Shown: positions 517-63,114 of the stretch, in pieces
Position numbering within the stretch: the stretch's first letter is position 1
How the letters are laid out: every line of letters starts with the position of its first letter
NCBI GenBank assembly: GCA_028286645.1
Contig: JAQBRF010000004.1
Span: 91,501-155,500, forward strand
Length of the DNA stretch: 64,000 nt
Reading direction: 5' to 3'
From: Candidatus Nomurabacteria bacterium
GTDB taxonomy: Bacteria; Patescibacteriota; Minisyncoccia; Phycocordibacterales; UBA5272
Program-made: the position numbers and the translations under genes
Notes under the pieces: model-generated
Told to the model about the DNA's origin: nothing
The model's input: the letters and a program-made list of their open reading frames with translations, nothing else
Database searches by the model: none

Positions 517-546
517 AAAAGCCGCGCCGAAGCGCGGTTTTTCTCA
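517..546. terminator. bidirectional intrinsic terminator
   Basis: Hairpin gccgcgc-cgaa-gcgcggt followed by tttttctc on plus, with an A-run before it (T-run on minus). Lies between frr(+) and the small minus-strand gene 544..729. Confidence 0.6.
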
Positions 547-729
547 CTGCGGTAGTTCTTCTGCAATGAGATGGAGAGCCGGAAGGGGAACGATACCATG
601 AATGTTATACGGATGGAGTTTGTATTCCTCGAACTCGAACCACTCGACATGGTTCTCGTTTCCTTCGTAGACTTTCGGAAGCTTGCCTCCCTTACATAGT
701 TTTGTGACAAACGCGACGGAGAATCTCAT
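544..729 (-). CDS. small hypothetical protein (61 aa), GC-rich class
   Basis: Internal ATG of the 544..873 minus ORF (MRFSVAFVTKLCKGG...). AGGAG sits 6 nt upstream of the ATG on the minus strand. Locally elevated GC, and a terminator hairpin lies immediately downstream. Confidence 0.35.
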   Translation of the reverse strand: MRFSVAFVTKLCKGGKLPKVYEGNENHVEWFEFEEYKLHPYNIHGIVPLPALHLIAEELPQ

Positions 730-801
730 GTGCGACTCCTCGGGATGGTTTACCATAAAACTACTCCCAAGACTAAGATAAGTCAATAAGGCGTAATCGT
801 A

Positions 802-810
802 TGGTAAAAT
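802..810 (+). promoter_or_regulatory. extended -10 box TGGTAAAAT, 7 nt before the rseP ATG (leaderless-type)
   Basis: tggtaaaat at 802-810, ATG at 818, no SD. Confidence 0.4.
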
Positions 811-817
811 ATTTGCT

Positions 818-1930
818 ATGTCTATTTCTGCTGTACTCATTTTCTTAGTAATTCTTCTCGTCCTTGTTATCATTCATGAGTTTGGCCATTTTATTGTTGC
901 TAAATGGACCAATATGCGCGTGGATGAATTCGCTTTTGGCTTTCCGCCAAGGATTTATAGGAAAAAACTCGGAGAAACTACTTATAGCTTAAACGCCCTT
1001 CCAATCGGAGGATATGTTTCTATATGGGGCGAAAATGGAAGCGAGGAAGATAATGCAAGCGATGGTGCGAAAAACAATCCCCGCGCTTTCGGCAATCGTC
1101 CATGGTGGGCGCAGATCTTAGTGCTTTTAGCGGGAGTAACAATGAACATGCTTTTAGCCTTGATTATTCTTGTCTGCCTTTCATTTGGAAAAGTAGAAAT
1201 GAGCGCAGATGATCCTACTTATGGGTCAAGAGTAGAAGATACATCGTTAGTTGTTTTAGATGCATATCCAGAAAGCCCTGCATATAAAGCAGGACTTACT
1301 CCAGGCTCACGCCTTATAAGCGTTACTAGTAAAAATATGAAAGCAAGTCTTGTAACGGCCACATCCTTAGTAACTTTTATAGAAAACCATAGCAATGATG
1401 CAATTACATTTGTATATGAAAAACAAAATGGAGAACACGCGTCGACAACAGTCGCGGCTATATATGGAATAGTTCCAAACAAAAAGGCAGTAGGCATAAG
1501 CGTGGGAACTACTGGGTATGTTTATACTTCAACCGGGGAAGCTATAAAGTTGGGACTTCAGAGAACAAAAGACATAACTCTTCTTACATTTGGCGGACTA
1601 AAGACACTTTTAGTATCTGCGATTCATCGTGATGGAAGCGTACTTAACTCTCTTTCTGGTCCAATTGGAATTGCAAAGATCGTTGGAGAAACTAGCGCAT
1701 ATGGAATCATGCCAATACTTACACTTGTTGCCATTCTTTCTATAAACTTGGCTGTATTTAACATTCTCCCGCTTCCAGCGCTTGATGGCGGAAGAATTAT
1801 AATGGTGGTTATTGAATCAATAAGCCGAAGAAAGATTCCATTTAAATATTATTCGTGGCTTAACCTCGGGGGTTTTGCTCTGCTTCTTTTATTGCTTGTG
1901 GTGGTAACAGTACATGATGTTATCAAATAG
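818..1930 (+). CDS. rseP: site-2 protease, M50 zinc metalloprotease RseP family
   Basis: HEFGH zinc motif near the N-terminus within a TM helix, a central PDZ-like region, and the C-terminal LPLPALDGGR (LDG) motif. Confidence 0.85.
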   Translation: MSISAVLIFLVILLVLVIIHEFGHFIVAKWTNMRVDEFAFGFPPRIYRKKLGETTYSLNALPIGGYVSIWGENGSEEDNASDGAKNNPRAFGNRPWWAQILVLLAGVTMNMLLALIILVCLSFGKVEMSADDPTYGSRVEDTSLVVLDAYPESPAYKAGLTPGSRLISVTSKNMKASLVTATSLVTFIENHSNDAITFVYEKQNGEHASTTVAAIYGIVPNKKAVGISVGTTGYVYTSTGEAIKLGLQRTKDITLLTFGGLKTLLVSAIHRDGSVLNSLSGPIGIAKIVGETSAYGIMPILTLVAILSINLAVFNILPLPALDGGRIIMVVIESISRRKIPFKYYSWLNLGGFALLLLLLVVVTVHDVIK

Positions 1931-1941
1931 ATTTCCTAATT

Positions 1942-4381: not shown

Positions 4382-4389
4382 AATAAAAA

Positions 4390-4413
4390 CTGTGCCAGCA
4401 ACAGCTGGCACAG
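4390..4413 (-). terminator. hairpin ctgtgccagc-aaca-gctggcacag with a T-run on the minus strand
   Basis: Perfect 10-bp stem. The A-run 4381-4389 on plus gives a U-tract for a minus-strand transcript arriving from 4400-4700. Confidence 0.45.
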
Positions 4414-4443
4414 ACTCCTCGGGGGTGCAATATTTCACGATCC

Positions 4444-4699
4444 CTTCTTTTTTTTCCAGCGCGCGAGCTCTTCTTCGGTCGCTGGTCGTGAATGGACCTC
4501 GCCCCCTAAGCCATTTTCATAAAACTCGAGCTCCTCAAATAGGATTCCTTTTTTTGATTCGACCAAAGTCGAAATAGTTCTGTCAGTTGTCTGAAGGTGG
4601 AGGGAGTGCGGGGTGGTGTGAACGGCCAGTCCTACGAGTAACAGGACAAAAGCTGTGGCGAGGATCGGTTTAGAGTTGGCAAGTGATTCTCCTTGTCAT
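4444..4699 (-). pseudogene. possible frameshifted small secreted protein
   Basis: Minus ATG at 4699 gives MTRRITCQL then a stop. A +1 shift continues KPILATAFVLLLVGLAVHTTPHS... for 78 codons, which looks like a signal-peptide protein. The region is GC-rich and bounded by minus-strand terminators at 4390-4413 and 4755-4781. Confidence 0.2.
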
Positions 4700-4754
4700 G
4701 CCCCGTGAAGTGGGAGGCTTTATATAAAGTTACTTATTTTTAAAACTTTTGTCA

Positions 4755-4781
4755 AATAAAAACCACCCCTTTATTAGGGGC
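4755..4781 (-). terminator. intrinsic terminator for the 4804..5106 minus gene
   Basis: cccc-tttatta-gggg hairpin with a T-run on the minus strand (plus aataaaaacca). Confidence 0.45.
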
Positions 4782-4803
4782 GTCTTGGCAATCCTGGTGG
4801 CCG

Positions 4804-5106
4804 TTAGTTTCTTCCAGTCATCTCGTCCACGAGTTTTTTGAATACTGGAAGCACGCGGGTAACTTCTTCGCCGGCTTCACGGTGCAAGTAGCCGCTCCCC
4901 TGGAGACGGTTCAGGCCCTGTATGGTGTAGACTGCCTCCCGTATTCCGTTGTGGGGAAAGTCCGTATGAGTGATCGTCACCTCTGTAGGCATGACGCCCT
5001 TTGTCACCTTGGTGCATAGAAGGGCAGCCGCAGTGGCTTCCTCCGATGTCTGGAAAATGTCGAGCCAGACCCAAGGTGACGTTATATGATCCTTGTTAGT
5101 TCTCAT
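4804..5106 (-). CDS. hypothetical protein (100 aa), GC-rich class
   Basis: ORF in a region of about 50% GC. AAGGGG lies 9 nt upstream of the ATG on minus, and a terminator follows downstream. Confidence 0.4.
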   Translation of the reverse strand: MRTNKDHITSPWVWLDIFQTSEEATAAALLCTKVTKGVMPTEVTITHTDFPHNGIREAVYTIQGLNRLQGSGYLHREAGEEVTRVLPVFKKLVDEMTGRN

Positions 5107-5205
5107 GAATAAGACCCCTTAAGGTGGATGAAACAAGTTGGACTGCTCATGTTGTTTATATATAAAAGTCTTTAATTTGTCAACTACTATATGAAAGCCT
5201 AAAAA

Positions 5206-5214
5206 ATGGTAGAA
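5206..5214 (+). promoter_or_regulatory. extended -10 TGGTAGAAT, 6 nt before the mreB ATG (leaderless)
   Basis: aatggtagaatgctcccATG. Confidence 0.5.
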
Positions 5215-5221
5215 TGCTCCC

Positions 5222-6271
5222 ATGTTTAACCGTCTTTACCGCCAATTTTCTAACGATATCGGAATAGATTTAGGAACAGCTAATACGCTTGTTTACTTGC
5301 GTGGCCGCGGGATAGTTATAAATGAGCCATCAGTGGTTGCATTAAACACGAAAACCAATCGCGTAGTCGCAGTAGGAATGGAGGCGAAAAATATGATGGG
5401 TAGAACTCCATCTCACATTAGAATCGTCCGGCCGCTTGTAGAAGGTGTGATATCAGATTATGAAGTGACAGAAGAAATGCTTTCGTATTTAATTAACAAA
5501 GCAAATGATGCTGATAAGAAGTTATTTCGTCCAAGAGTGGTAATAGGAATTCCTGTAGGAATTACTAATGTAGAAATGCGTGCAGTATATGATGCGGCAA
5601 AATCTGCTGGTGCTCGTGAAGTTTACATAGTAGAAGAACCGATGGCGGCAGCTATCGGAGTGCAAATGCCAATCCATGATCCTGTGGGAAGTATGATAAT
5701 AGACATCGGGGGAGGCACGACGGATATTGCTGTTATCGCACTTTCTGGAATTGTGAGAGCTAAGAGTTTAAAAATAGCAGGAGACAGGCTTACACAGGAT
5801 ATTATTTCTTATATGCGCGATGAGTTTAAAATGTTAATTGGAGAAAAAACCGCAGAGCATATAAAGATTACTGTGGGATCTGCCCTGCCGGACGAAATCC
5901 CTGAAGAAATTAGCATAAAGGGAAGGGATTTGGTTACAGGGCTTCCGCGGGAAGCGATTATCACAGATGTTGATATACGCGAAGCGATGTATGCATCTAT
6001 TTCACAATTAGTGGATGCTATTCGTGAGGTATTAGAAACAACTCCGCCCGAAGTACTGGCAGATATCATGCAAAAAGGAATGATGCTAGCAGGGGGCGGA
6101 GCACTTATCAGAAATTTGCCCCAGCTTCTTGAAAGTCAGCTTAAAGTGCCTGTAACAATAGTGGATGATCCATTAACGGCGGTCGCCCGCGGAACAGGGA
6201 TTATACTGGAAAATGTGAATTTATATAAAGATGTACTAGTAGAAAACACTGATGACATATCTTTCCGATAA
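5222..6271 (+). CDS. mreB: rod-shape determining actin homolog MreB
   Basis: DIGIDLGTANTLVY, GMMGRTP, and IDIGGGTTDIAV phosphate-binding motifs; full-length at 349 aa. Confidence 0.95.
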   Translation: MFNRLYRQFSNDIGIDLGTANTLVYLRGRGIVINEPSVVALNTKTNRVVAVGMEAKNMMGRTPSHIRIVRPLVEGVISDYEVTEEMLSYLINKANDADKKLFRPRVVIGIPVGITNVEMRAVYDAAKSAGAREVYIVEEPMAAAIGVQMPIHDPVGSMIIDIGGGTTDIAVIALSGIVRAKSLKIAGDRLTQDIISYMRDEFKMLIGEKTAEHIKITVGSALPDEIPEEISIKGRDLVTGLPREAIITDVDIREAMYASISQLVDAIREVLETTPPEVLADIMQKGMMLAGGGALIRNLPQLLESQLKVPVTIVDDPLTAVARGTGIILENVNLYKDVLVENTDDISFR

Positions 6272-7149: not shown

Positions 7150-7305
7150 ATGCTTCGCTACATTATTTATATAATCTTGCTCCTCATAACTCTCTTTTTT
7201 GACACCGCATTAGGTGCACATAGAGTGCCAGTTTTTACATTAATCCTTTGTGTTATAGTGATAATATATGAATTTATTTCGCCGTACATTTACACGTCGC
7301 GCTAG
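7150..7305 (+). CDS. candidate small 2-TM membrane protein (51 aa)
   Basis: Leaderless ATG 6 nt after TATACT. Translation MLRYIIYIILLLITLFFDTALGAHRVPVFTLILCVIVIIYEFISPYIYTSR has two hydrophobic helices. It overlaps the mrdA start in another frame and sits where mreD would normally be, but is too short to call MreD. Confidence 0.25.
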   Translation: MLRYIIYIILLLITLFFDTALGAHRVPVFTLILCVIVIIYEFISPYIYTSR

Positions 7306-9171: not shown

Positions 9172-9204
9172 AAATAAAAAACGCCACACCTTTCGATGTG
9201 GCGC
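9172..9204 (-). terminator. intrinsic terminator for the 9223..9813 minus gene
   Basis: Stem cgccaca / tgtggcg with loop cctttcga; the A-run 9172-9181 on plus gives a T-run on minus. Confidence 0.55.
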
Positions 9205-9222
9205 CGCTCAATTGGCAGGAAA

Positions 9223-9813
9223 TTACTTGCGATAGATGCGGTCGTGGGCAACTTTCTCGCCGTTGTGGGTGGCGGATTTCTCCGAGTACAAGGGTTTGAA
9301 GTAGTTGTCTTTGTACGCGACGCGGTCTACCACTTCAGTCGGACCGGTTGTTCGGAATTCCACGATAGTCATATCGCCATCTCTTTCGGCACTTGCCGTA
9401 AGAGGTAAGATGCGGAGAAGCTTGATGCCTTGAGAATTGTAACTTCCCACCTGCATCGTTCCTTCCGTGCTCTCCCCAGGTTTCAGTTTCGGAATCGGGA
9501 TTTTCGTTCTGATGATCGACGCGATACCTTGGGGCACTATAATGGTAAGCGCCGCGTCTTCGTCATAGGGCTTTTGTCCCATGACGCTTCCAAGCCAAAG
9601 GCCGGTTTCCAGATCAAAGGAGTGCAGAGCGTTGATGGCGGCGTCGTATTGGTACCGCTCGAGTTTTTTCTCCCCGGTAATGAGGTCTTCGTCCACCATG
9701 ATGAAGGTTTCGTTTTTGAGTGCCGAAAACTTCGCATGACGAATGATTGCTAAACCTACCACCAGAATCGCAACTGCGAGTACTATTCCTGTCACTGCTT
9801 GCGAGGTTTTCAT
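9223..9813 (-). CDS. membrane-anchored hypothetical protein (196 aa), GC-rich class
   Basis: N-terminal TM helix (VTGIVLAVAILVVGLAII). AAGGAA 8 nt upstream on minus, elevated GC, and a terminator downstream. Confidence 0.5.
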   Translation of the reverse strand: MKTSQAVTGIVLAVAILVVGLAIIRHAKFSALKNETFIMVDEDLITGEKKLERYQYDAAINALHSFDLETGLWLGSVMGQKPYDEDAALTIIVPQGIASIIRTKIPIPKLKPGESTEGTMQVGSYNSQGIKLLRILPLTASAERDGDMTIVEFRTTGPTEVVDRVAYKDNYFKPLYSEKSATHNGEKVAHDRIYRK

Positions 9814-9946
9814 CTTGTGTTCCTTTCAATGAATGAGCGGTTGATGTCATCTATATTATAACATAACCTATAAGTAATGTCAAACTAAGTATAAATTAAA
9901 ATAAAAGTATGTTAAATTTCTATAAACCACAGTAGGAAGAATTCTG

Positions 9947-10258
9947 ATGGAAACCGAAGACATTTTGCGAGAGATGCAAAAGTGCAGTAATCGCTATATT
10001 GTTATTTTGAGGGCGTTCAGGAATCATTTAACTTCGACAGGGATCCGCATTGGAACGCCGGGGCGCGTGAAAGCAAATATCACTCGTCATTACCGACTGT
10101 ATACAGACCTATATCAATTTAAAGAAGAAAAGGCTAAGGAAATCATCGGGCAAATTATTCGGGAGGATCAGGAGTTTGTCGATGCATTCTTCCGGCGTCA
10201 AGATTGGTCCTATAAAGATATGCAGCCTGAATTGGAGAAACGGATAAGGAGAGAATAG
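9947..10258 (+). CDS. hypothetical protein (103 aa), GC-rich class
   Basis: AGGAAG SD-like sequence 8 nt upstream; followed by the gcgga...tccgc+T5 terminator at 10258-10285. Confidence 0.45.
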   Translation: METEDILREMQKCSNRYIVILRAFRNHLTSTGIRIGTPGRVKANITRHYRLYTDLYQFKEEKAKEIIGQIIREDQEFVDAFFRRQDWSYKDMQPELEKRIRRE

Positions 10259-11150: not shown

Positions 11151-11159
11151 TGCTATAAT
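11151..11159 (+). promoter_or_regulatory. extended -10 TGCTATAAT, 8 nt before the lysS ATG
   Basis: tgctataattttttcatATG. Confidence 0.4.
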
Positions 11160-13088: not shown

Positions 13089-13541
13089 ATGAAAAAAGCA
13101 CCAACCAAGGCAGACGTGATTCTGTTGGGAACTGAGGAAACTGATGGTCGCGTGATTTCACTCGATCGCGCAGTCGATACTGTAGCCACGCCCTTTCCGT
13201 ATGAAATCGTGAAAATTACGCCAATTGCCACAGAGATCAAGGGAGATGAGGACTATGTGGTGTTAGCGCGGTGGAATGGGGCCCTGTACACATTTTTCTG
13301 GCCCCATACATTCCCTCGCGCCACAAAACATACCGGGTTCTTTCTGTTTTCTAACGTAATGTCCAGTGAGGGGGTGTGCTCCAGGTTGTGTCACATTCTT
13401 TATGAACGGGCGCTTCCTCTTCCCAGAATTCACAAAGAAAGCGTGGAATTAAATCACGATAACCCGGAGACTAAATGGCGCACCTTTATAAAAAGGACGT
13501 CAGAATCCAAATGGGAAGAAATCAGGACGGTGGGTAAATAA
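13089..13541 (+). CDS. hypothetical protein (150 aa), GC-rich class
   Basis: ATG at 13089 preceded by GGGAG 4 nt upstream; the listed 13053 start is a GTG. Elevated GC, and the terminator at 13543-13575 follows. Confidence 0.4.
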   Translation: MKKAPTKADVILLGTEETDGRVISLDRAVDTVATPFPYEIVKITPIATEIKGDEDYVVLARWNGALYTFFWPHTFPRATKHTGFFLFSNVMSSEGVCSRLCHILYERALPLPRIHKESVELNHDNPETKWRTFIKRTSESKWEEIRTVGK

Positions 13542-13542: not shown

Positions 13543-13575
13543 CGCGGCGCCGCAAGGTGCCGTTTTCTTTTTATT
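13543..13575 (+). terminator. intrinsic terminator
   Basis: gcggcgccgc palindrome followed by ttttctttttatttt. Confidence 0.5.
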
Positions 13576-17311: not shown

Positions 17312-17335
17312 TAAAAAAACCGGCCAGGGGCCGGG
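17312..17335 (-). terminator. ccggcc-agg-ggccgg hairpin with a T-run on minus
   Basis: Preceded on plus by aaaaaaa. Serves the 17344..17755 minus gene and possibly ftsI as well. Confidence 0.5.
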
Positions 17336-17343: not shown

Positions 17344-17755
17344 TCATTGATTAGATGCGGGCGAAAAGGCGATCGCATCATCCTTGCCTAAAACGACTTG
17401 AAACTGGTCGCTCAGACGGAATCGTCTCTGCCGCTGTTCGCGCACGATGGAAATCGTAAAAATGAACTCATCGAGGAAAAGAGGGTCAAGGACATCGGTA
17501 TTTGCCTGGAACACCGCCTTTCCTATATGAATCACGGCGATCTTCTTCCCGCTTTTGAGCAGGTCAAGCGTAATGCCCGCCTTCGCGTCTTCGCTTGTGG
17601 TTTGTATATTCGATCCTCCTATTTGATATGGAGTGTCGAACTCCAAACTTCTCACGCCCGGACGAAATTCAATTGAGCAGTTTGCCTCCGCGAAGGACGC
17701 TATGAACTCATCCCACGGGTCTTGGACAAACATGTCTTCTATCGTACCTTGCATA
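17344..17755 (-). CDS. hypothetical protein (136 aa), GC-rich class
   Basis: Internal ATG (MQGTIEDMFVQDPWDEF...) preceded by a strong GGAGG SD. The listed longer ORF has no SD. Confidence 0.45.
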
Positions 17756-17853
17756 CGGCCTCCTTCCTGTTTAAACTTTACAAACAGACTAGCATATTGA
17801 AATAAAAGTTTCATTAATTTCGTATAAACTGTTATATGATATAATTGATAAAT

Positions 17854-18755: not shown

Positions 18756-18798
18756 AATTAAGAAATAAAAATGGCCCGCTTGCGCGAGCCGGAACCGG

Positions 18799-19221
18799 CT
18801 AGTGGCCGGGGTTGAAAAGATGAGCCTTGTCTGGGCGTATGTCACAGAACTCTATTGCTTTTTTTCTGTCCCATTGTTTTCGTAAAAGTGTGGTAATTAG
18901 CCAGGTTACCATCGTTACCACACTGATCCATAGCAAGATGTGGGCAAGGAACTCGGCACTAAACACTTCTGCAGAGACGATTCCCATAGTAAAGCAGAAG
19001 GTAAATGTCCTGCGACATATACGTGCGTGATTGCACAACCACCAATTCTTTGGCGTAAAGAAGTTGTGGTACATCTCAATCATTCGCGTGCGCTCTTCAT
19101 CGTTAGTTTCGTGTTTTTCACGAAGTGGAAATGGCCTCCCGCAAGTTGGGCATATGGACGGGTCTTTAATTATCTGATCCAGCCACATAAAGAATTTAAG
19201 TCCAATCCCGATACGATTCAT
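18799..19221 (-). CDS. hypothetical membrane protein with an N-terminal Cys-rich (zinc-ribbon-like) segment
   Basis: CPTCGRPF...C..C cysteine cluster followed by two hydrophobic helices. AGGGAGA 6 nt upstream on minus; moderately GC-rich. Confidence 0.45.
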   Translation of the reverse strand: MNRIGIGLKFFMWLDQIIKDPSICPTCGRPFPLREKHETNDEERTRMIEMYHNFFTPKNWWLCNHARICRRTFTFCFTMGIVSAEVFSAEFLAHILLWISVVTMVTWLITTLLRKQWDRKKAIEFCDIRPDKAHLFNPGH

Positions 19222-19410
19222 TTAATCTCTCCCTTTGTGCATTAGGCTTCCGCCTTATAGGTAATTATCCTGCATTTTTTATTAATATTTGTCAATTTAT
19301 GTTAGAATCTTTTTACTATGTCACTTTCTATCGGCATGGAGTGAACACAACCCAACATGCTGGCATAGGGAGAGTGGTACCGTTTCAATTTAAAATAGCC
19401 CTGAGTAAGA

Positions 19411-19438
19411 CAAAATAAAAACCCCACCGAAGCGGGGC
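19411..19438 (-). terminator. intrinsic terminator for the 19482-20014 minus genes
   Basis: ccccacc-gaa-gcgggg hairpin; the A-run on plus gives a T-run on minus. Confidence 0.5.
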
Positions 19439-19481
19439 TCTCTGAATATGTTGGACACTACTTGATGGCGAAGGCAGAAGT

Positions 19482-19694
19482 TTATATCGCTTGCTGCTTA
19501 ACTCCTTCCTCTTGTGCTTCGGTTAATTTGAGCTCTCTTGTAATGCCATCACTTCCCTTAATCAGAAAACCTGTAGTTGCTATCAGTAGAGAAAGTCCTG
19601 GGACTGTCGCCGCCTCCGCAATAACAGTGCCACCTACCTTGTATTTATTCTGTAAGGAAGGAGAGATGTTAGTCAATTCGTATTTTTTTGCCAT
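19482..19694 (-). CDS. small hypothetical protein (70 aa)
   Basis: ATG at 19694 (MAKKYELTNISPSLQNKYKV...) preceded by AGGAGA. It overlaps the stop of the upstream gene by about 20 nt, suggesting translational coupling. Confidence 0.35.
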   Translation of the reverse strand: MAKKYELTNISPSLQNKYKVGGTVIAEAATVPGLSLLIATTGFLIKGSDGITRELKLTEAQEEGVKQQAI

Positions 19695-51390: not shown

Positions 51391-51507
51391 TAATATTCTT
51401 TACTTTATCATTCTTGATGCATCCCGATTTTTGTATTTATATTAGTTTGACATTTCTTTAAGTGTGTTTTAGAGTGATCTTAGGTAGCCAAACGCAAAGG
51501 GGACATA

Positions 51508-52011
51508 ATGCTCATCGCACTATACCAAGCCGCTAACATGTATTTTCCGGACTCCAACAAACTCGATCAGCCCTATCGGATATTAGAGAATCGTGAAGAA
51601 CTTTTTTCCCATTCGGAAGTTGCCACATCATGGATGTGGCAACTGTTGCAGGCCATAGACGCCATGATGGATATGCCCATCATGGCGCATGTGGCGATTC
51701 CATATCGAGCGCGGAAGTTTCTCCCTGATTACTGGGGAGTGAAGGTGCTTTTCACGACATTGCCTAAGAATTACCGAAAGGGGTCACTGCCAAAGGTTGT
51801 TAACGAACAAGGAGATCGGCTCGTGCAAAAGCTCCTTGCCCTTCGCTGTGTGGGGAAAGAGATAAGCTGTGATCCGATCAAGCCTGCGGAATATTGGGAA
51901 GAATTCCTGCGCACCGCGCTTCTTGCGGAGAGAGATCGAGTCTTTAAACAAACCGAAGATGAGATCCAAAAAGCCCAAAGCCTCCGAAGTCTGTACAAAG
52001 TAATCAAGTGA
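51508..52011 (+). CDS. hypothetical protein (167 aa), GC-rich class
   Basis: AAAGGGGA 5 nt upstream of the ATG; elevated GC. Confidence 0.4.
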   Translation: MLIALYQAANMYFPDSNKLDQPYRILENREELFSHSEVATSWMWQLLQAIDAMMDMPIMAHVAIPYRARKFLPDYWGVKVLFTTLPKNYRKGSLPKVVNEQGDRLVQKLLALRCVGKEISCDPIKPAEYWEEFLRTALLAERDRVFKQTEDEIQKAQSLRSLYKVIK

Positions 52012-52048
52012 AGCCAGGCCGCCCAAGTATTGGGCGGTATTTTCTTGA

Positions 52049-52845: not shown

Positions 52846-54732
52846 ATGTCAAAAATAATTGGAATAGATCTTGGAACTACAAACTCCGCAGTGGCAATCA
52901 TTGAAGGAGGCCATCCAAAGATAATTGAAAACCTAGAAGGAAACCGTACGACACCATCTGTTGTTTCGGTAAATAAAAATGGCGAAAGAGCAGTTGGGCA
53001 AATCGCTAAGCGTCAGGCAGTTACAAATCCAGAAAACACCATCTATGGAGTGAAACGTTTTATGGGGCACTCATTTACAGATAAAGATGTACAGGATGAC
53101 ATTCCGCGGGTGGCATATAAAATAAAATCTGGGAATGATGGAGGCGTGCTTATAAATTTGGGTGGCAAGGATTCTCGTCCAGAAGAAATAAGCGCGATGA
53201 TCTTACAGAAAATAAAGGCAGATGTAGAAGCGAAACTCGGAGAAAAGATTACAGAGGCAGTTATCACAGTACCTGCATACTTTAATGATGCTCAACGCCA
53301 GGCTACAATCGCGGCAGGTAAAATAGCGGGCCTTGATGTAAAGAGAATTATTCCAGAACCAACGGCTGCGGCTTTAGCATATGGATATAACAGCTCTAAG
53401 AATGAAAAGATTGCCGTGTATGACTTAGGAGGAGGAACATTTGATATTTCCATTTTAGAAGTAGGTGATGGCATTGTGGAAGTGAAGTCAGTCGATGGGG
53501 ATTCACATTTAGGCGGACGCGATATTGACCAAAAGTTTGTGCGATTTATAGCAGAAGAATTTAAAAAGGATCAAGGAATAGATGTTACAAAAGATCCTCT
53601 TGCACTTCAGAGATTAGATGAAGCGGCAGAAAAAGCAAAGCATGAACTTTCAACCCAGGCAGAAACCGAAATAAATATTCCATTCATCACTTCAGGGGCT
53701 GATGGTCCCAAGCATTTGCTTATGAAAGTAACGCGTGCCAAGTTAGAAGAAATAGCCAAGCCTTTTATCGATAGATCGATTGAGATCACCAAACGCGCAC
53801 TAGATAATTCACCATTTAAAAAAGAAGATATCCATGAAATCATCATGGTGGGAGGACAAACACGTATGCCTATGGTTATAGAAGCGGTAAAGGCGCTGTT
53901 TGGTAAAGAACCAAATCGTTCCATTAATCCAGATGAAGTGGTGGCGCTTGGCGCTGCAGTTCAAGCTGGGGTATTACAAGGAGATATTGGGAAAGATATT
54001 ACTTTACTTGATGTGACTCCGCTTACTCTTTCTATCGAAACTATGGGGGGAGTAGCTACGCCGATAGTAAAGAAAAATACAACCATTCCAACTAATGCTT
54101 CACAAGTATTTTCTACTGCTGCTGATAACCAAACTTCTGTAGAAATTCACATCACCCAAGGAGAGCGTCCAATGGCGGCAGATAATAAATCTCTAGGCAG
54201 GTTTATCTTAGACGGCATTCCTCCAGCTCCACGAGGCATGCCACAAGTAGAAGTAACGTTTGATATCGACGCAAACGGTGTGTTAAATGTAACTGCAAAA
54301 GATAAAACTTCTGGAAAAGTTCAGTCAATTAAGATTGAAGCATCGTCTGGGCTTACGGATGATGAGATAAAGAAGATGCAGGCAGATGCTGAAGTTCATG
54401 CGGATGAAGATAAGAAGAAAAAAGAATTCGTTGAATCAAAGAATATGGCCGACGTTCTCGTTCACACTGCAGAGAAAGCTCTTAAAGATGCAGAAGGGAA
54501 AATAGGCGATGACATTAAAAAAGAAATAACAGATGCAATTGAAGAAGTAAAGAAAGCTCAAAATGGTGGAGATACTGAAGTGCTTAAAAAATCCACGGAA
54601 GATCTTTCACAAAAGTTGATGAAGATAGGAGAAGCAATGAAGACTGCGGGGGATAATGCTGCTCCAAATCCCGCACCAGAAAGCCCTACCGATATTCCAG
54701 AAGATAAAAAAGAAGGAGAAACTAAGGCATAA
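52846..54732 (+). CDS. dnaK: molecular chaperone DnaK (Hsp70)
   Basis: [26 protein letters not shown] and the rest of the canonical Hsp70 signatures. Confidence 0.97.
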
Positions 54733-54762
54733 AAAAGTGGCCGGAGTTTCCGGCCACTTTCT
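54731..54762. terminator. bidirectional intrinsic terminator
   Basis: gtggccgg-agttt-ccggccac, flanked by aaaaaa upstream and tttctgg downstream. Confidence 0.65.
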
Positions 54763-54770: not shown

Positions 54771-55238
54771 TCAGAATGGAACATGCATGTACAGGCCGTA
54801 GATCACGTCATGGCCAATAGGGATGATGGCCGGCAGCTCTGGGCAATTGACGAGAGTCAATTTATTGAGCGCTGGATAAAACGAATATTCAATCCATCCC
54901 AGAGGCCTCCGCATGCTGTTACTTCGCCCAGCTACGAATCCGTTAGGACCGCAATTCCCTGTAGACCAGAGTTCCCGGATGGCAGTGCGAAGTTGTACCT
55001 CAAGACACGCAACGGGCTCAAACATCTCTTCCCACAGCTTTTCAATAAGCGCCCCCGAAGTTGCGGGAAATTTGCTGTCCATGCTCCGGATGACTCCGAA
55101 ATAGCCGGCGTCAGTCTGGAAAGACCCATTCGGCTCTTTAAGCTGGAGCACCGGAAATGGCTCAGGGATACGTGCGAGACATTCGGGAAATGGCTCAGGG
55201 AGGGAAAGCTTGGTGAAAGGCAACAGTCGCGAATGCAT
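54771..55238 (-). CDS. hypothetical protein (155 aa), GC-rich class
   Basis: ATG at 55238 (MHSRLLPF...); the listed longer ORF begins with TTG. Convergent with dnaK behind the bidirectional terminator. The overlapping plus ORF 54783..55319 is the alternative reading. Confidence 0.3.
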   Translation of the reverse strand: MHSRLLPFTKLSLPEPFPECLARIPEPFPVLQLKEPNGSFQTDAGYFGVIRSMDSKFPATSGALIEKLWEEMFEPVACLEVQLRTAIRELWSTGNCGPNGFVAGRSNSMRRPLGWIEYSFYPALNKLTLVNCPELPAIIPIGHDVIYGLYMHVPF

Positions 55239-55372
55239 ATTTGTCCTATTTCTTTTAATCAGGAAAATCCTGATCTTCAAAACCTATCCTATATAAAGAA
55301 AAGGGGGATGTCAAAATGAAAATAATGATTTTGTTTTAACCGATAAAATATGGTATAACTTCAATATAAACT

Positions 55373-56533: not shown

Positions 56534-56620
56534 AAAAATTTGTTTCTTCGCGTATCTCGAATAATTTTATAGCTTAGAATTTGTGCAGAACTAAATTTAG
56601 TTTAGATTTTAAAATGAAGC

Positions 56621-56649
56621 AACCGGGTCAGCCTTACGACTGCCCGGTT
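56621..56649 (-). terminator. hairpin downstream of the 56654..57031 minus gene
   Basis: aaccggg(tcag)...(ctg)cccggtt; on minus it is followed by gcttcatttt. Confidence 0.4.
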
Positions 56650-56653
56650 CTGG

Positions 56654-57031: not shown

Positions 57032-57163
57032 GGTTAATCTCCATAGGCAGCCGTGAAAAACAGAGGAAAGGGTTATTTTTACTCTAGGATATGTGTATCA
57101 GTTTGTCAAGTTTAAGTATTCAACTAATTATCAATTATTAATTACTGTGTTAAAATTAATTTT

Positions 57164-58180
57164 ATGTTCTCATTCTTCTCAAAACCAGATACCAGGAAAG
57201 TTCTTGTCTCAGGAATAAAGCCAACCGGACGTCCTCATGTGGGTAATTATTTTGGTGCCATGAAGCAAAATATTGCTTTTTCCAATAGTGGAGACTATAG
57301 AAGTTTTGTATTTATTGCCGATTACCACGCACTTACCACAGTAAAAAATAAGGAAGAATTAAGTAAACAGACTGTGGAAATGGTGGCGGGGTATATTGCT
57401 TGTGGATTGGATATCAATAAAGCGATTTTATTTAAACAGTCAGATGTGCCAGAGCATACCGAGCTTTGTTGGATATTTAATAATATAGTTACAGTCCCAT
57501 ATCTGATGCGAGCTCATGCTTATAAAGATCATGAGGCAAAAGGGAAAGAAGTAAATGCTGGACTCTTTGATTATCCAGTCCTAATGGCTGCAGATATATT
57601 AATGTATGGGGCAGACATCGTACCAGTGGGCGCGGATCAGAAGCAGCACGTTGAATATGCTCGCGATATTGCTGGTTTTTATAACAGAGCTTTTATAAAG
57701 GATAACCGCGAATACTTTAAAATGCCTAAGGAGCTTATCGTTGAGCGTGTCGCAACTATTCCAGGAATTGATGGGAAAAAGATGTCAAAAAGCTATGGCA
57801 ATCACATAGAGTTATTCTGCCCAGAAGAAGAGTTAAAAAAAACCGTGATGTCTATCGTTACTGATAGTTCTTCTCCTGAGGAAAAGAAAAATCCCGATGA
57901 AAATAATATTTATAATATTCACAAACACTTTTTGAGCACAGAAGAGGATTTACTTTTGCGAGCGAAATTTGAAAATGGAGGATATTCGTATAAGCAAGCA
58001 AAGGAGGATTTGCTAGAAACTATTTTCAAATGGAGAAAAGGAAAAATTGATATTTATATGAGGCTTGTTAAAAATCCAAATAAAATTTATAAAATTTTAA
58101 ATAAAGGAGGAAGAATTGCAAAAACCGAAGCGCAGAAGAGAATGAAAGAGGTAAGGAAACAAGTGGGATTAGATTTATAA
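57164..58180 (+). CDS. trpS: tryptophanyl-tRNA synthetase
   Basis: Class I HIGH-type motif KPTGRPHVGNYFGA and KMSKS; 338 aa. Confidence 0.88.
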   Translation: MFSFFSKPDTRKVLVSGIKPTGRPHVGNYFGAMKQNIAFSNSGDYRSFVFIADYHALTTVKNKEELSKQTVEMVAGYIACGLDINKAILFKQSDVPEHTELCWIFNNIVTVPYLMRAHAYKDHEAKGKEVNAGLFDYPVLMAADILMYGADIVPVGADQKQHVEYARDIAGFYNRAFIKDNREYFKMPKELIVERVATIPGIDGKKMSKSYGNHIELFCPEEELKKTVMSIVTDSSSPEEKKNPDENNIYNIHKHFLSTEEDLLLRAKFENGGYSYKQAKEDLLETIFKWRKGKIDIYMRLVKNPNKIYKILNKGGRIAKTEAQKRMKEVRKQVGLDL

Positions 58181-58225
58181 AAAGAAAACGCCCGTAGGCG
58201 CCATAAAGGGTCTTTATATGTGCTT

Positions 58226-58711
58226 TTAAACCTTGCACATACCGCAGGTGATTGCCTCAAGCATTGCCGCAATCCACGCGTTGGTATTTTCCGCTAAAGT
58301 GGATTTTTTGATGATCCGATCTTTAGGAAAGTCTTTGAGCATTGTCCGGATGAGTTCGGGTGGGTGATGTGTAAAGATGATCGTTGGCAGCCGGAGCGGT
58401 TGGATTCTCTTGACGAGCCCAATACCTCTTGCTTCATCTTCCTCGTAGAACTTATGCTCGAGGCTACCCACGGCCGGAGAGATGTCCTTGCTGCGTTCGT
58501 CATAAGGAATCTCGAGGCTGGTGGAAATCGTAATCACCTTCCTGGTGTCCACGACTTCAATCGCACCGACGTAAGATTCTCTTGCGAGTACTTCGGCTTG
58601 GATCTCTCGCTTCTCAAGCTCGCCCATTAAACGTCGAACGATGCTAATTCGGAATGTGGGACTTCCGTATTCCACTACGAGAACTGCAGGTATAGTTCCT
58701 GCCTCATTCAT
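58226..58711 (-). CDS. hypothetical protein (161 aa), GC-rich class
   Basis: AGGGAG 6 nt upstream on minus; elevated GC. Confidence 0.45.
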   Translation of the reverse strand: MNEAGTIPAVLVVEYGSPTFRISIVRRLMGELEKREIQAEVLARESYVGAIEVVDTRKVITISTSLEIPYDERSKDISPAVGSLEHKFYEEDEARGIGLVKRIQPLRLPTIIFTHHPPELIRTMLKDFPKDRIIKKSTLAENTNAWIAAMLEAITCGMCKV

Positions 58712-58821
58712 TGCTGTCTCCCTGATCAGGTTTATAATGACTTAAATATAAACTACAACTTTTAATCACGTAAGTCAAGTTATCTTCATATAATTCATAT
58801 ATTTGTTATAATAGAAAAACT

Positions 58822-60231: not shown

Positions 60232-60311
60232 GTTGACTTTATATATAATTGTGATATAATAAAAAATAGACGGAACTTTTGTTTCGTCACTTTATAGGGA
60301 GACTAAAAATC

Positions 60312-60758
60312 ATGGCCACTTCGTCCGAAGGTCGCTTGGCTCGCTTCTGGCGCAACAACAGGAAGGCGGTGATATTCGCTCTCGCCCTTCTCCTCTGCGG
60401 TATCGTCGGTAACGGTGGTTACATCTGGGGTAAAAACGATCTCTCAACTGTGATCAAGCAGCGCGATCAGCTTTCGCGAGAAAATGGCAAGCTTCAACTC
60501 AGGGAACAGGAGCTCCGTATCGATCTCCACAATCTGACTCTCCTGAGACAGGAAGCGGAAGCTCATGCGGGGCGTGAAAGCATGGCTCGCGAGAAAGCCG
60601 AAGGTAACGCTGCAAACGCTCTTAGGCGTGCCAGGCTTGCTGAAAAGAATGCAAGTGCTGAGCAGATCGGCCAGCGAAATGCTGCCGAAGTCGCAAAAGC
60701 CGCCGCGAAAGAAGCTGCCCGCATCAAGCACGAAGCCGGGGCTCCGCCTAGGCGTTAA
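60312..60758 (+). CDS. membrane-anchored coiled-coil hypothetical protein, GC-rich class
   Basis: ATG at 60312 preceded by GGGAGA. TM helix AVIFALALLLCGIV, then a long Ala/Arg/Glu-rich coiled coil. A strong terminator follows. Confidence 0.45.
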   Translation: MATSSEGRLARFWRNNRKAVIFALALLLCGIVGNGGYIWGKNDLSTVIKQRDQLSRENGKLQLREQELRIDLHNLTLLRQEAEAHAGRESMAREKAEGNAANALRRARLAEKNASAEQIGQRNAAEVAKAAAKEAARIKHEAGAPPRR

Positions 60759-60780
60759 CAAGCGCAGTGGTCGCGCGAGA

Positions 60781-60808
60781 CGGGGTAGCGATACCCCGTT
60801 TTTATTTT
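60781..60808 (+). terminator. intrinsic terminator
   Basis: cggggta-gcga-taccccg followed by tttttattttg. Confidence 0.65.
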
Positions 60809-60866
60809 GCATAATAAGTAACCTTTTGCTGTCACAATTCGTCTAGAATATTGTTATACTTAATAT

Positions 60867-62102
60867 ATGAAGAAATATACTTTTTTGGGCATTTTTATAA
60901 TTTTATTAGGCGTAGGAGGTCTTACATTAGCGGCAACTACCACTAAAACACCCGTTAAGGCTCCGGCCAAGACTACTAAAACCGTAGTTAAAACTCCTGT
61001 GAAGAAAACTACAACCGTCGCTACGAAATTTGATTACGAAGCTTGGATTCCGTATTGGAGAAAAACTGAAGGTGCGGCAAATGCCACAGCGAACCTCGAT
61101 AAGCTTACTCAAATAAGTCCATTTAACTATGAACTTAAACTAGATGGCTCAAACATAATTGATGACGCGGGAGTTATAAATGAAGAGCCTTGGGTAAGCC
61201 TTATAGCTCAAGCCAAGAAAAAGGGAGTAAAAGTTTATCCTACAATATTAGCTTATCCTCATAATGATACAGAGAAAAATAATTTATACCTTCTTTTAGC
61301 ACAACGCGAAAGCAGGAATGCCCACATACAGGATATTATGGAAACAGTAACAATGAATAATTTTGACGGTATTGATATTGACTACGAAGCAAAGACTGCC
61401 GAAACGAGAGATTACTTTTCAGATTTTCTTACTAAGTTGGGAACGGAGCTACATAAGAAAAACAAGCAGCTTATTTGTACTATAGAAGCAAGAACTCCTC
61501 CAGAAAGTAAATTCGCAACTACTTCACCAGAAGTATTGCAGAAAATCGAATATTCAAATGATTACAAAGCGATAGGGGCTGCATGTGATCAGGTTCGTAT
61601 AATGATGTATGACCAGATGAATGATGACCAGGTATTGGTGAACGCAAACAGTGCGCAAGGAAATTTGTATATGCCCGTAGCTGACATTGAATGGATAAAG
61701 AAAGTGGCGACTCTTGCTCTCTGGGATATTCCTGCCAAAAAAATCATCATGGGAGTTCCGACATATGGATATAAATATGAAATAACTCCCGCTACAGCCA
61801 CTAATCGTGCGAAATATTCAAGAATAGGGTCTATGAACTGGAATTATGCAGATGAATTAGCCAAGTCTATTGGAGTAACTCCTATCAGAAATAGTGCCGG
61901 AGAATTAAGCTTTACATATGCTACTTCTACTGGGGTTAATGGCGAAGATTTAGGAGGAATAAAGCAATACTTAATTTGGTATTCAGACGCGCAAGCCATT
62001 GCGGATAAAATTAAAATAGCAAAGCTTTATGGATTAGGCGGAATCGCAATATTTAAAATCGATGGAGGATTTGATCCGAAGCTCTGGAGTGTACTTAAAT
62101 AA
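60867..62102 (+). CDS. secreted glycoside hydrolase family 18 (chitinase-like) with a Thr/Lys/Pro-rich repeat linker
   Basis: N-terminal signal/TM segment, TTKTPVKAPAKTTKTVVKTPVKKTTTV repeats, and the GH18 catalytic motif FDGIDIDYE (DxxDxDxE). Confidence 0.8.
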   Translation: MKKYTFLGIFIILLGVGGLTLAATTTKTPVKAPAKTTKTVVKTPVKKTTTVATKFDYEAWIPYWRKTEGAANATANLDKLTQISPFNYELKLDGSNIIDDAGVINEEPWVSLIAQAKKKGVKVYPTILAYPHNDTEKNNLYLLLAQRESRNAHIQDIMETVTMNNFDGIDIDYEAKTAETRDYFSDFLTKLGTELHKKNKQLICTIEARTPPESKFATTSPEVLQKIEYSNDYKAIGAACDQVRIMMYDQMNDDQVLVNANSAQGNLYMPVADIEWIKKVATLALWDIPAKKIIMGVPTYGYKYEITPATATNRAKYSRIGSMNWNYADELAKSIGVTPIRNSAGELSFTYATSTGVNGEDLGGIKQYLIWYSDAQAIADKIKIAKLYGLGGIAIFKIDGGFDPKLWSVLK

Positions 62103-62281
62103 CTAGATAATAGACGTTAGATTTTAGATGTCAGATTAATAAAGAAGGATAGAATATAAAACGTAGGAAAATAAAAGTTTCTAGAGCACGCGAAGTTTAG
62201 TTTGGGAGTACATATATTTAAAATTAATTAGGGACTTGGTCCTGAGCTTCGGAGTGTACTTAAAAATTTAGAAATGAAGAA

Positions 62282-62320
62282 TTCCCAGAGGCGCTATAAA
62301 ACAGCGCCTCTGGGAATTTT
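62282..62320 (+). terminator. strong hairpin terminator (13-bp stem)
   Basis: ttcccagaggcgc-tataaaaca-gcgcctctgggaa followed by tttt. Lies immediately next to the stop of the 62319..62747 minus gene. Confidence 0.6.
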
Positions 62321-62747
62321 AGTACGATCGCTTGATCCTGTTGACCACCACCGTAATGTACGGCTCCCGTTCGTAATCAAGCATGAGAAGCGTCGAGAAG
62401 CCTTCACCCTGCTCTTCACAGCCCCATATGAGGTTCTTCGGAAAGACCTCTTCAATGAAGCAGTCTCCCACGAGTTGGTCAGCCTCTTCGGGGGTTCGGG
62501 CATATTTGACGACGTTCCGGATCATGCCATCTATCTCGGTAAAACTTAACCGCTCGAAGTGCCGCGGCTTGTAAACCGCATTCGTTCGTCCACCAGTAGT
62601 TACTTGTGCCCAGCCATGCCGAGCTAGGGCGGCGATTCGGACCCCTACCGAAAGGCACTCCCAGGTGATGTGAGTCGGAAGGGCGTCCGATTCTGTCGGC
62701 ATCAGGTCTGCCTGGGTTGCCAATACTATGTCGCCATGGATTTTCAT
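62319..62747 (-). CDS. hypothetical protein (142 aa), GC-rich class
   Basis: ATG at 62747 (MKIHGDIVLATQADL...) preceded by AGGAGA 6 nt upstream; GC-rich. Confidence 0.45.
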   Translation of the reverse strand: MKIHGDIVLATQADLMPTESDALPTHITWECLSVGVRIAALARHGWAQVTTGGRTNAVYKPRHFERLSFTEIDGMIRNVVKYARTPEEADQLVGDCFIEEVFPKNLIWGCEEQGEGFSTLLMLDYEREPYITVVVNRIKRSY

Positions 62748-62880
62748 CGGTGTTCTCCTATCGGTGTCCAGAGGGTGTTCGTGTGTAGGATACAATGTAC
62801 TTGCTATATTGTCAAATATATACAATTTGATTATTATCTGGAGCGTACTAAAATAAAAAACCCGCGTGTAACATGCGGGC

Positions 62881-63114
62881 CTATCTACTACATTTGAATT
62901 GCTGGAACCCTTCAATCACCCGGACTCTTACATTTATCAGAAACTCGTGTTCTGGGTACTCGAATATCTGCAAGAGATAAAGCTGGGGGTTGAAATGGGC
63001 GGCTACTCTTCTCATCGCTTCGTCCTTGGTCTCAGCGCCTTTAATGAGTTTGATTATTTCTTCCCGAAGACGATCTCCCGATATTAGTCTAGGGTTAATC
63101 TTTTTTTCTGCCAT
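62881..63114 (-). CDS. small hypothetical protein (77 aa)
   Basis: GGAG 8 nt upstream on minus. Confidence 0.3.
   Translation of the reverse strand: MAEKKINPRLISGDRLREEIIKLIKGAETKDEAMRRVAAHFNPQLYLLQIFEYPEHEFLINVRVRVIEGFQQFKCSR

Follow-up and report, generated by a model that had tools for sequence, protein, structure and literature searches.

Leaderless-type core genes and GC-rich, Shine–Dalgarno-led single-gene units in one Candidatus Nomurabacteria contig

Can one segment of a bacterial chromosome hold two sets of genes that follow different rules for starting a transcript, starting its translation and ending it? This question is raised by a stretch of 64,000 nucleotides from Candidatus Nomurabacteria bacterium (contig JAQBRF010000004.1, positions 91,501 to 155,500; hereafter the window), in which short GC-rich genes are scattered among AT-rich housekeeping genes. 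An original prediction, made from the letters of the sequence, had set about 18 GC-rich genes with Shine–Dalgarno (SD) sites and terminators of their own apart from an SD-less core, and had explained them either as acquisitions from GC-richer, SD-using donors, such as the host bacterium of an episymbiont, or as a class with a different mode of initiation. The reading preferred here is that two expression grammars coexist: the GC-rich genes would form an accessory class of the candidate phyla radiation (CPR) that is conserved, self-contained and in part mobile, and their initiation would be SD-dependent and regulatable; we would give this reading about an even chance of being correct.

For comparison of the two classes, 58 core coding sequences (CDS) and the 18 listed GC-rich island CDS were used. 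Against a window GC of 0.389, the islands stand out as discrete, sharp segments of 0.3–0.8 kb at GC 0.47–0.50. Core CDS have a GC of 0.374 (0.30–0.43) and a GC at third codon positions (GC3) of 0.302, compared with 0.494 (0.43–0.56) and 0.550 for island CDS (Mann–Whitney p = 2e-10). Relative synonymous codon usage is anticorrelated between core and island genes (r = -0.35), whereas two halves of the core agree almost perfectly (r = 0.98), and amino acid usage in the islands is also shifted, from lysine to arginine and towards more tryptophan, cysteine and proline. Orientation differs as well, with 11 of 18 island genes on the minus strand as opposed to 1 of 58 core genes (57 of 58 on the plus strand). 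Islands show no DNA similarity to one another by blastn and have no flanking repeat in common, the only repeats near islands being the pairs 35312/41554 and 62049/62214. Integron gene cassettes were rejected as a description, since the units lie scattered, come with individual promoters and are accompanied by no common repeat.

SD sites were scored by duplex energy with ACCUCCUUU over the 20 nt that precede the start, using a cut-off of -4.5 kcal/mol or lower. This cut-off was reached by 16 of 18 island genes and 5 of 58 core genes (Fisher p = 2e-10). It is also reached by 22.5% of random 20-mers drawn from the islands, against which the island excess is still clear (binomial p = 4e-9), and the core rate lies below this random rate. 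The SD cores of island genes are GGAG-type and 4–10 nt from the ATG. A terminator was counted where a T-run accompanied a hairpin of -8 kcal/mol or lower no further than 70 nt from the stop; by this definition, 15 of 18 island genes and none of the 58 core genes have one. Promoters were found with custom scans, a generic consensus scanner being too noisy to separate the classes; of the 18 matches to TTGACN-16..18-TAnnnT in the window, 15 precede an island gene in the right orientation, leaving predicted 5' leaders of about 22–100 nt. Six of 19 island proteins carry transmembrane (TM)-like segments.

A different set of signals precedes the core genes. A TAnnnT box at a gap of 5–9 nt was found before 25 of 57 core starts, compared with 9.7% of other ATGs (p = 2e-11), and the extended form TGnTAnnnT at a gap of 6–9 nt before 12, where 0.5 would be expected by chance. 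No -35 box was seen upstream of the core starts in the window, and downstream genes of core operons likewise have no SD sites. From this motif geometry, transcription of core genes would begin with the A of the start codon, giving leaderless mRNAs. Several of the island terminators touch or overlap the stop codon of a core gene, as 54731–54757 does at dnaK and 58179–58218 at trpS.

Much of the original prediction therefore stood: the GC dichotomy and the codon-usage difference it proposed to look for, the SD sites before almost every GC-rich gene, the dedicated stem-loop terminators, the predicted membrane anchoring of several products, the SD-less core with a TAnnnT box near the ATG and, by signals, a leadered, SD-bearing class distinct from a leaderless, SD-less one. 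Its list of SDs was right for most genes, with weak SDs at 9947–10258 and 54771–55238, and most of its coordinates could be kept, although 17344–17755 became 17344–17754 and 19482–20014 turned out to be a two-gene unit. The TTGACN promoters, the minus-strand excess and an extra unit at 4382–4755(-) had not been described; the tally is 18–20 units, and the final reading counts one bicistronic unit besides at least 19 monocistronic ones.

The coding nature of the islands was examined next to these signals. GC by codon position follows the high-low-high coding pattern, and a log-likelihood ratio of amino acid composition prefers the proposed frame over overlapping open reading frames (ORFs) in nearly every island, with the highest value (+18.6) at 9223–9813. 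NCBI or Logan gene calls use the proposed frame in at least 16 of 19 cases and the identical start in 14 of 19. Deposited starts differ for several GC-rich genes (26945/26966, 17754/17814 and 60279/60312), the NCBI call at 17344–17754 being the longer form 17344–17814, and JWN37_505 as deposited is 13 amino acids shorter than the homologue-supported start; these differences fit a gene finder struggling with two start models in one genome. The short ORF at 544–729 is supported by the position of its promoter, downstream of another possible ATG at 873. The broken ORF at 4382–4755 may be a pseudogene or a case of programmed frameshifting, or may reflect a sequencing indel. Structured noncoding RNA genes were rejected, as there are no tRNA or Rfam matches in the window and both codon periodicity and protein homologues are present. 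Pfam searches with 20 island ORFs returned nothing but a sub-threshold His_Phos_1 match. The islands are real genes for fast-evolving proteins, most of them outside any Pfam family and often with a membrane anchor.

Homologue searches were carried out for three island proteins (26966, 40933 and 9223, named by their first positions) among 5.8 billion plus 1.84 billion proteins, and succeeded for the first two. The 26966 family has six homologues at 40–53% identity, one new locus having come from a metagenome scan with the family alignment, and all are GC3 outliers in their own contigs: 0.76 in locus L083 (neighbours about 0.44), 0.84 in L086 (about 0.37), 0.55 in L095 (about 0.38) and 0.89 in L089, where neighbours range from 0.41 to 0.75 with two at 0.72–0.75. 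Each has a TTGACA promoter, a conserved leader, an SD and a terminator. For 40933, 21 remote homologues at 26–37% identity were found, with GC3 of 0.68 (L093) and 0.76 (L094), where their leaderless-type neighbours have about 0.5, and with AAGGAG and AGGAGG as SDs. Every homologue of either family with a readable context is thus a GC3 outlier with leader and SD among leaderless-type, SD-less, CPR-like genes. No homologues were found in typical bacteria or phages, viral contigs not having been scanned. Since the homologues are GC3 outliers in CPR-like contexts, GC richness travels with the family and is not simply un-ameliorated foreign DNA; the persistence of GC richness, leader and SD within families indicates that these traits are heritable inside CPR and are no remnants of a recent transfer out of a host.

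The leader of 26966 appears more conserved than the protein itself and aligns in seven loci (the window, L083, L086, L089, L091, L092 and L095). Four hairpins are predicted, the last of which pairs CCTTG with the CAAGG of the SD. An alignment of six sequences contains 22 predicted pairs, 8 of them with double changes, at a covariation energy of just -1.4 kcal/mol, and an Rfam scan of the leader gave a chance match only and no family. We consider 26863–26965 a candidate new cis-regulatory RNA. The AlphaFold2 model of the 26966 protein (predicted local distance difference test, pLDDT, 62) was too poor for a structure search.

Contexts of the 26966 family are unrelated in five genomes. A 1.2-kb unit at 85% identity occurs in both L086 and L089, between unrelated flanks of different GC. 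In L083, a tRNA-Gln(UUG) and a duplicate of its 3' half occupy 9728–9870, immediately ahead of the promoter of the homologue, which looks like an att-type scar, and L089 has a tRNA-Gln(CUG) 2 kb upstream of its homologue.

For 40933, the AlphaFold2 model has a pLDDT of 93 and matches PhoE, RosC and dPGM in Foldseek (E down to 4e-9), whereas the His_Phos_1 Pfam score of 17.6 bits falls under the gathering threshold of 21.7. In an alignment of 15 family sequences, the catalytic residues R11, H12, R60 and H147 vary little or not at all, and the protein is confidently predicted to adopt the histidine phosphatase fold, superfamily branch 1. The phosphatase adjoins arrays of phosphoenolpyruvate (PEP)-utilizer (phosphohistidine swivel-domain) paralogues in the window (35507–41514), in L093 (7925–10014) and in L094 (2608–11054), an adjacency that suggests a functional link, for example dephosphorylation of phospho-His carriers. 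The tail of a terminator, a promoter with TTGACT and the 5' portion of the helix–turn–helix (HTH) gene at 41641 are present twice in the window, at 35290–35520 and 41532–41765, with a core of 64 nt at 97% identity and a degraded remainder. Between the two copies lies a 6.2-kb module encoding a PPDK_N/PEP-utilizer protein, a pair of PEP-utilizer paralogues and the histidine phosphatase, which suggests insertion or duplication of the module en bloc.

A clade-wide test used 65 loci (L002–L081) fetched through AsnS and not chosen for GC-rich genes, outliers being genes with a GC3 at least 0.15 above the locus median. A -35 promoter precedes 11 of 27 GC3 outliers and 33 of 926 other genes (41% versus 3.6%, p = 4e-9), and an SD precedes 7 of 27 and 67 of 926 (26% versus 7%, p = 0.003), while the leaderless box shows the reverse, at 2 of 27 versus 342 of 926 (7% versus 37%, p = 9e-4). 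Pfam searches with 10 GC3-rich genes from the relatives gave no family. Outliers make up about 18% of the called genes of the window, 2.8% overall and 16–18% in the densest other loci, so that the window is unusual mainly in outlier density. The trpS–asnS gap, which holds 58226–58711 in the window, is empty in L002, the closest relative, and carries a GC3-rich hypervariable gene in L010, L011 and L051. A family of about 220 amino acids is found upstream of asnS at L010 9209–9901, L011 5395–6060, L045 7922–8557 and L051 953–1639; it adjoins asnS except in L045, where it lies about 1.4 kb upstream, and has a -35 promoter, a leader and a GC3 of 0.74–0.88 in genomes with a median GC3 of 0.25–0.44. 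In L010 and L011, otherwise 93% identical, the GC3-rich gene (0.74–0.76) upstream of asnS has been swapped for an allele 28% identical at the protein level, its promoter, leader/untranslated region and terminator remaining 96–97% identical. A tblastn search with the island proteins against 80 related loci (L002–L081) gave no match.

The deposited proteins of the window bear the titles "MAG: hypothetical protein" JWN37_475 to JWN37_545 [Candidatus Nomurabacteria bacterium] (MAG, metagenome-assembled genome), on a contig of 514,133 bp. The nearest relatives of AsnS/AspS are Patescibacteria and Parcubacteria MAGs, the best being L002 at 73% identity. Exact-protein look-up matched S11 and the 40933 protein solely to run SRR13312974, and gave no record for DnaK. 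The core set includes RRF, RseP, ProS, MreB, MreC, PBP2, GreA, LysS, MraZ, RsmH, FtsI, AlaS, IF-1, S13, S11, S4, RpoA, GrpE, DnaK, DnaJ, TrpS/TyrS, AsnS/AspS, ScpA and YchF. The gene for the YchF GTPase lies at 32588–33694, in a window dominated by leaderless-type starts, and YchF has been linked to regulation of leaderless-mRNA translation (PMC12641178).

Accessory genes of AT-rich, leaderless type are also present: an array at 20–27 kb (GNAT, APH/NUDIX, deaminase, methyltransferase, SDR and His_Phos_1 enzymes), an integrase/serine recombinase element at 27.7–32.6 kb and a cyclodipeptide synthase, along with several AT-rich ORFans. These genes rule out that GC-rich simply means accessory. The element forms an AT-rich, mobile-element-like block (27691–32640) of two ORFs of no assigned function, an HTH_17 protein, an integrase, an excisionase-like protein and a recombinase. 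The cyclodipeptide synthase gene (33701–34399, minus strand) is divergent from that of a truncated class II aminoacyl-tRNA-synthetase-like protein (34445–35188, plus strand). The last 59 nt of the GH18 gene (62049–62107) are repeated 165 nt downstream at 62214–62272 with 76% identity, just before the GC-rich genes at 62319–63114, and may mark an insertion scar at the GH18 3' end. Coordinates are collected in Table 1.

Table 1. GC-rich units, leaderless-type promoters and element genes of the window ("leadered" and "leaderless-type" are predicted classes; aa, amino acids; energies in kcal/mol).
Feature	Coordinates	Strand	Composition	SD or box	Promoter	Terminator	Remarks
Leadered gene, 61 aa	544–729	-	GC 0.47	GAGGAG, 6 nt from ATG	758–786, TTGACT-17-TAGTTT	510–542, -13.3	
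Extra GC-rich unit, frameshifted ORF	4382–4755	-	GC 0.48	AAGGAG, then TTG	4727–4755, TTGACA	GTGCCAGC..GCTGGCAC + T-run near 4382–4415	TM-helix protein continues in another frame
Leadered gene, 100 aa, JWN37_475	4804–5106	-	GC 0.53; by codon position 0.55/0.42/0.61	AAGGGG	5155–5183	4758–4802, -15.0	
Leadered gene, 196 aa, JWN37_479	9223–9813	-	GC 0.51	AAAGGAA	9855–9883, TTGACA-17-TATAAT	9176–9216, -18.4	N-terminal TM
Weakest member, 103 aa, JWN37_480	9947–10258	+	GC 0.43	AGGAAG, weak (-4.2)	No good -35	Weak, -5.4	
Leadered gene, 150 aa, JWN37_484	13089–13541	+	GC 0.47	GGGAG		13544–13572, -15.6	
Leadered gene, 136 aa	17344–17754	-		AGGAAGGAGG, -12.3		17313–17334	
Leadered gene, 140 aa, JWN37_492	18799–19221	-		AAGGGAG	About 19264–19295, TTGACA..GATAAT	18767–18790, -14.3	Cys-rich N-terminus + TM
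Bicistronic GC-richer unit	19482–20014	-		AGGAG, CAGGAG	20044–20072	19412–19442, -16.9, common	19673–20014 (113 aa, TM, JWN37_494) + 19482–19694 (70 aa, JWN37_493)
Promoter and about 100-nt 5' leader of 26966 with predicted structure	26834–26965	+			26834–26862, TTGACA-17-TATAAT		Leader 26863–26965
Homologous leaders in related loci	L083 about 9895–10000; L086 about 9895–10000; L089 about 4597–4702; L095 about 5900–6000						
Leadered gene, 212 aa	26966–27604	+	GC 0.51, GC3 0.59	AAGGAG		27642–27676	N-terminal TM + conserved C-terminal domain
Divergent histidine phosphatase, 193 aa, JWN37_519	40933–41514	+	GC 0.56, GC3 0.64	AGGGAG	40866–40894	41538–41571	
Leadered gene, 170 aa, JWN37_520	41641–42153	+	GC 0.51	GCGGGG, G-rich (-5.0)	41582–41609, within 64-nt repeat common to 35312–35375	42177–42205	Weak HTH signal
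Leadered gene, 167 aa, JWN37_534	51508–52011	+		AAAGGGGA	51447–51475	52018–52043, -15.9	
Leadered gene, 155 aa, JWN37_537	54771–55238	-	GC 0.53	TAGGA, weak (-3.9)	55286–55314	54731–54757, -16.7	In dnaK–dnaJ gap
Leadered gene, 125 aa	56654–57031	-		TGGAG	57081–57109	56611–56651, -20.7	4 TM-like segments
Leadered gene, 161 aa, JWN37_540	58226–58711	-		AGGGAG	58750–58778	58179–58218	In trpS–asnS gap
Leadered gene, 148 aa, JWN37_542	60312–60758	+	GC 0.56	GGGAG	60233–60260, TTGACT-16-TATAAT	60767–60808, -18.8	TM + coiled coil
Leadered gene, 142 aa	62319–62747	-	GC 0.54	AGGAG	62787–62815	62280–62318, 18-bp hairpin	
GC-richer leadered gene, 77 aa, JWN37_545	62881–63114	-		TGGAG	63145–63173	62850–62880	
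Extended -10 box, rseP	802–810	+		TGGTAAAAT			7 nt before ATG at 818; leaderless-type core promoter
Extended -10 box, mreB	5207–5215	+		TGGTAGAAT			6 nt before ATG
Extended -10 box, PBP2	7251–7259	+		TGTTATAGT			8 nt before ATG
Extended -10 box, lysS	11151–11159	+		TGCTATAAT			8 nt before ATG
Extended -10 box, deaminase	22321–22329	+					6 nt before ATG
Extended -10 box, GNAT	23320–23328	+					6 nt before ATG
Extended -10 box, SDR	24547–24555	+					6 nt before ATG
Extended -10 box	34429–34437	+					7 nt before ATG at 34445
Extended -10 box, alaS	42701–42709	+					8 nt before ATG
Extended -10 box, trpS/tyrS	57148–57156	+					7 nt before ATG
Extended -10 box, asnS/aspS	58804–58812	+					9 nt before ATG
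Extended -10 box, GH18	60852–60860	+					6 nt before ATG
Tyrosine integrase	29500–30627						In block 27691–32640
HTH_17 excisionase-like protein	30787–31005						In block 27691–32640
Large serine recombinase	31009–32640						In block 27691–32640

On the preferred reading, the first grammar would govern about 58 AT-rich, co-oriented genes, comprising housekeeping genes and many accessory enzymes, including the integrase-bearing element; their promoters would be of the extended -10 type and lack a -35 box, and their transcripts would begin at the A of the ATG, hence be leaderless, and end without intrinsic terminators. The second would govern GC-rich CDS with opposite codon preferences in either orientation, each with a -35/-10 promoter, a leader of 22–100 nt, a GGAG-type SD and a strong hairpin terminator, at least one leader probably being a structured RNA that pairs with its own SD. 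Those families of this second kind that can be traced appear to keep all of these traits, GC3 outlier status included, in other leaderless-type, CPR-like genomes, and some, found in different contexts, would be exchanged as promoter-to-terminator units built like phage morons. Mobility may be the main source of such genes. Their GC enrichment may stem from GC-biased gene conversion during frequent recombination, from exchange with CPR lineages of higher GC, or from both; we favour these candidate causes in view of the swapped allele and the altered amino acid composition.

Use of the SD sites by the ribosome is, in the same way, a putative function of the island genes, since the reported detection rate of an anti-SD motif in Parcubacteria is only 48% (PMC9297842). 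No 16S rRNA was found by an Rfam scan of the window or by a grep for the conserved 3' region in 83 sequences. Indirect support for an anti-SD comes from the 26966 family, whose SD is conserved and predicted to pair with CCTTG of the leader. We take Nomurabacteria to be members of the L1-lacking group. Lineages without an anti-SD overlap that group (Tsurumaki et al. 2022, PMC9297842). The window resembles these anti-SD-less Parcubacteria in belonging to the same superphylum and in having core genes without SDs, as that paper would predict; the paper concerns rRNA and ribosomal proteins, and describes no canonical-SD subset or compositional split (PMC9297842).

Several further points weigh, together with that 48%, against the reading of two grammars. 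Both the leaderless and the leadered assignments are read from motif geometry. Homologues were found for two of the three families searched and none for 9223–9813, for which a word-seeded search detected nothing at about 40% identity or above, and no close relative of the window organism was found in the collections searched. Genes in the clade test were called by a home-made ORF caller, and the SD effect in that test is modest. Slots matched between the window and L002 are common to both, but their contents are without homology. Finally, the family with the highest GC3, that upstream of asnS, occupies syntenic positions and lacks an SD, which means that GC richness is not always tied to SD or mobility.

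The alternative that survives best, although we consider it rather unlikely, is a vertically inherited, native regulatory class, in which the leader serves post-transcriptional control and selection on the mRNA keeps GC high, with no major transfer. The conserved, probably structured leader, predicted to pair with the SD, speaks for it, as do the constant neighbourhood of the 40933 family and PEP-utilizer genes, the synteny of the asnS-upstream family in four genomes and a GC3 excess that holds in hosts from 31% to 52% GC. It is harder to reconcile with the non-syntenic 26966 family and its 1.2-kb unit between unrelated flanks, with the allele replacement between L010 and L011, or with slot contents that differ between the window and its closest relative; the amino acid shift suggests general GC pressure and not codon selection alone.

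Recent transfer from ordinary GC-richer, SD-using bacteria, with the signals as un-ameliorated donor features, appears improbable. Atypical GC, codon usage anticorrelated with that of the core, textbook sigma-70, SD and terminator signals, random orientation and the fact that the genes mostly have no detectable relatives are all what such transfer would leave, and one remote 40933 homologue sits on a 751-bp contig of 57% GC on which both genes have AAGGAGG. Against this, the searches returned no homologue from typical bacteria, homologues with readable context are outliers among leaderless-type CPR-like genes too, the conserved leader and the PEP-utilizer neighbourhood argue for long residence in CPR, and about 19 independent recent single-gene insertions would be needed in 64 kb. 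Islets of horizontally transferred genes and ORFans resemble the window genes in atypical GC and codons, lineage restriction, variable slot content and the tRNA near one related locus. Acquired DNA is, however, usually AT-richer than its host, whereas the window genes are GC-richer, and simple decay is not seen, with family GC3 of 0.55–0.89 in hosts with medians of about 0.30–0.44. Horizontal acquisition as the original prediction put it is accordingly supported in one respect, as there is evidence that units move or are exchanged (the 26966 contexts, the 1.2-kb unit, the tRNA-Gln and the allele swap), and fails in another: the searches with three proteins revealed no donor lineage outside CPR, whether a host or another ordinary bacterium. 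The label ORFan, likewise, suits 9223–9813 but not the 26966 and 40933 families with their remote homologues.

Phage-derived morons or prophage remnants scattered in the chromosome are very improbable. Morons, associated with Hendrix and colleagues, are reportedly single genes with their own promoter and terminator and a deviant composition, lying between conserved transcription units. The units of the window match this architecture, and an integrase plus serine-recombinase element is present in the window; that element, however, is itself AT-rich and of leaderless type, no phage structural or replication genes lie nearby, and the units sit between housekeeping operons of a cellular chromosome and not within a prophage. 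PHROGs searches with 18 island proteins gave no convincing match (two marginal ones, E = 0.003 and 0.008), and, unlike in morons, the compositional offset is conserved within families across host genomes.

An artefact of chimeric joins, contamination or non-coding GC-rich segments with spurious ORFs has next to no probability, even though AT-rich stop codons let GC-rich DNA yield long ORFs in several frames, the organism is known from one sequencing run only and coding scores are weak at 9947, 18799, 41641, 54771 and 60312, since it would need about 38 misjoins in one 514-kb contig, and correctly placed host-style AT-rich promoters, SDs and terminators at each unit, an identical architecture in MAGs from other studies, protein-level conservation with a confident fold and the independent Logan assembly all speak against it. 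That assembly, made with a different assembler, holds most island proteins and reproduces 37610–41609, across a core/island junction, at 100% identity, which makes chimerism of the islands, a caveat of the original prediction, very unlikely.

Genomes that mix leaderless and SD-led genes are known, as in Mycobacterium and Deinococcus, and form the "leaderless plus SD" class of GeneMarkS-2. The window is like them in having a -10 box at a fixed, short distance for one gene set and an SD-led set alongside. It is unlike them in that the sets are also split by composition, codons, promoter type, terminators and strand, in that operon-downstream genes have no SD, and in that the SD-led minority consists of short, Pfam-less, single-gene units. 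No paper was found on leaderless dominance or on GC-rich, SD-led genes in CPR, and the GC-rich leadered class is apparently undescribed. A more sweeping proposal, which we regard as a long shot, is that Parcubacteria keep two systems, a leaderless AT-rich core and a CPR-wide set of exchangeable, GC-rich, leadered cassettes whose GC comes from gene conversion and whose GGAG marks a separate, regulatable initiation route.

For gene annotation, the co-existence of two start models means that gene finders trained on one of them will mis-start one class, as seen in the several genes truncated or extended in the NCBI record. GC3 and promoter type together could pick out a flexible, probably host-interacting, gene pool in CPR genomes, and the persistence of GC3 values of 0.6–0.9 where locus medians are about 0.25–0.44 offers a natural test of biased gene conversion versus selection. 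A large part of bacterial diversity belongs to CPR bacteria, whose ribosomes are reduced, and many Parcubacteria have been reported without an anti-SD. Should the anti-SD be absent here, the conserved GGAG motifs would be much more surprising: if the 16S rRNA lacks CCUCC, they would be read by something else, or the genes would be expressed elsewhere, for instance in a host. Whether CPR ribosomes still use SD pairing, and for which genes, becomes testable with a conserved minority of genes that have canonical SDs, together with sequence evidence of regulated SD access.

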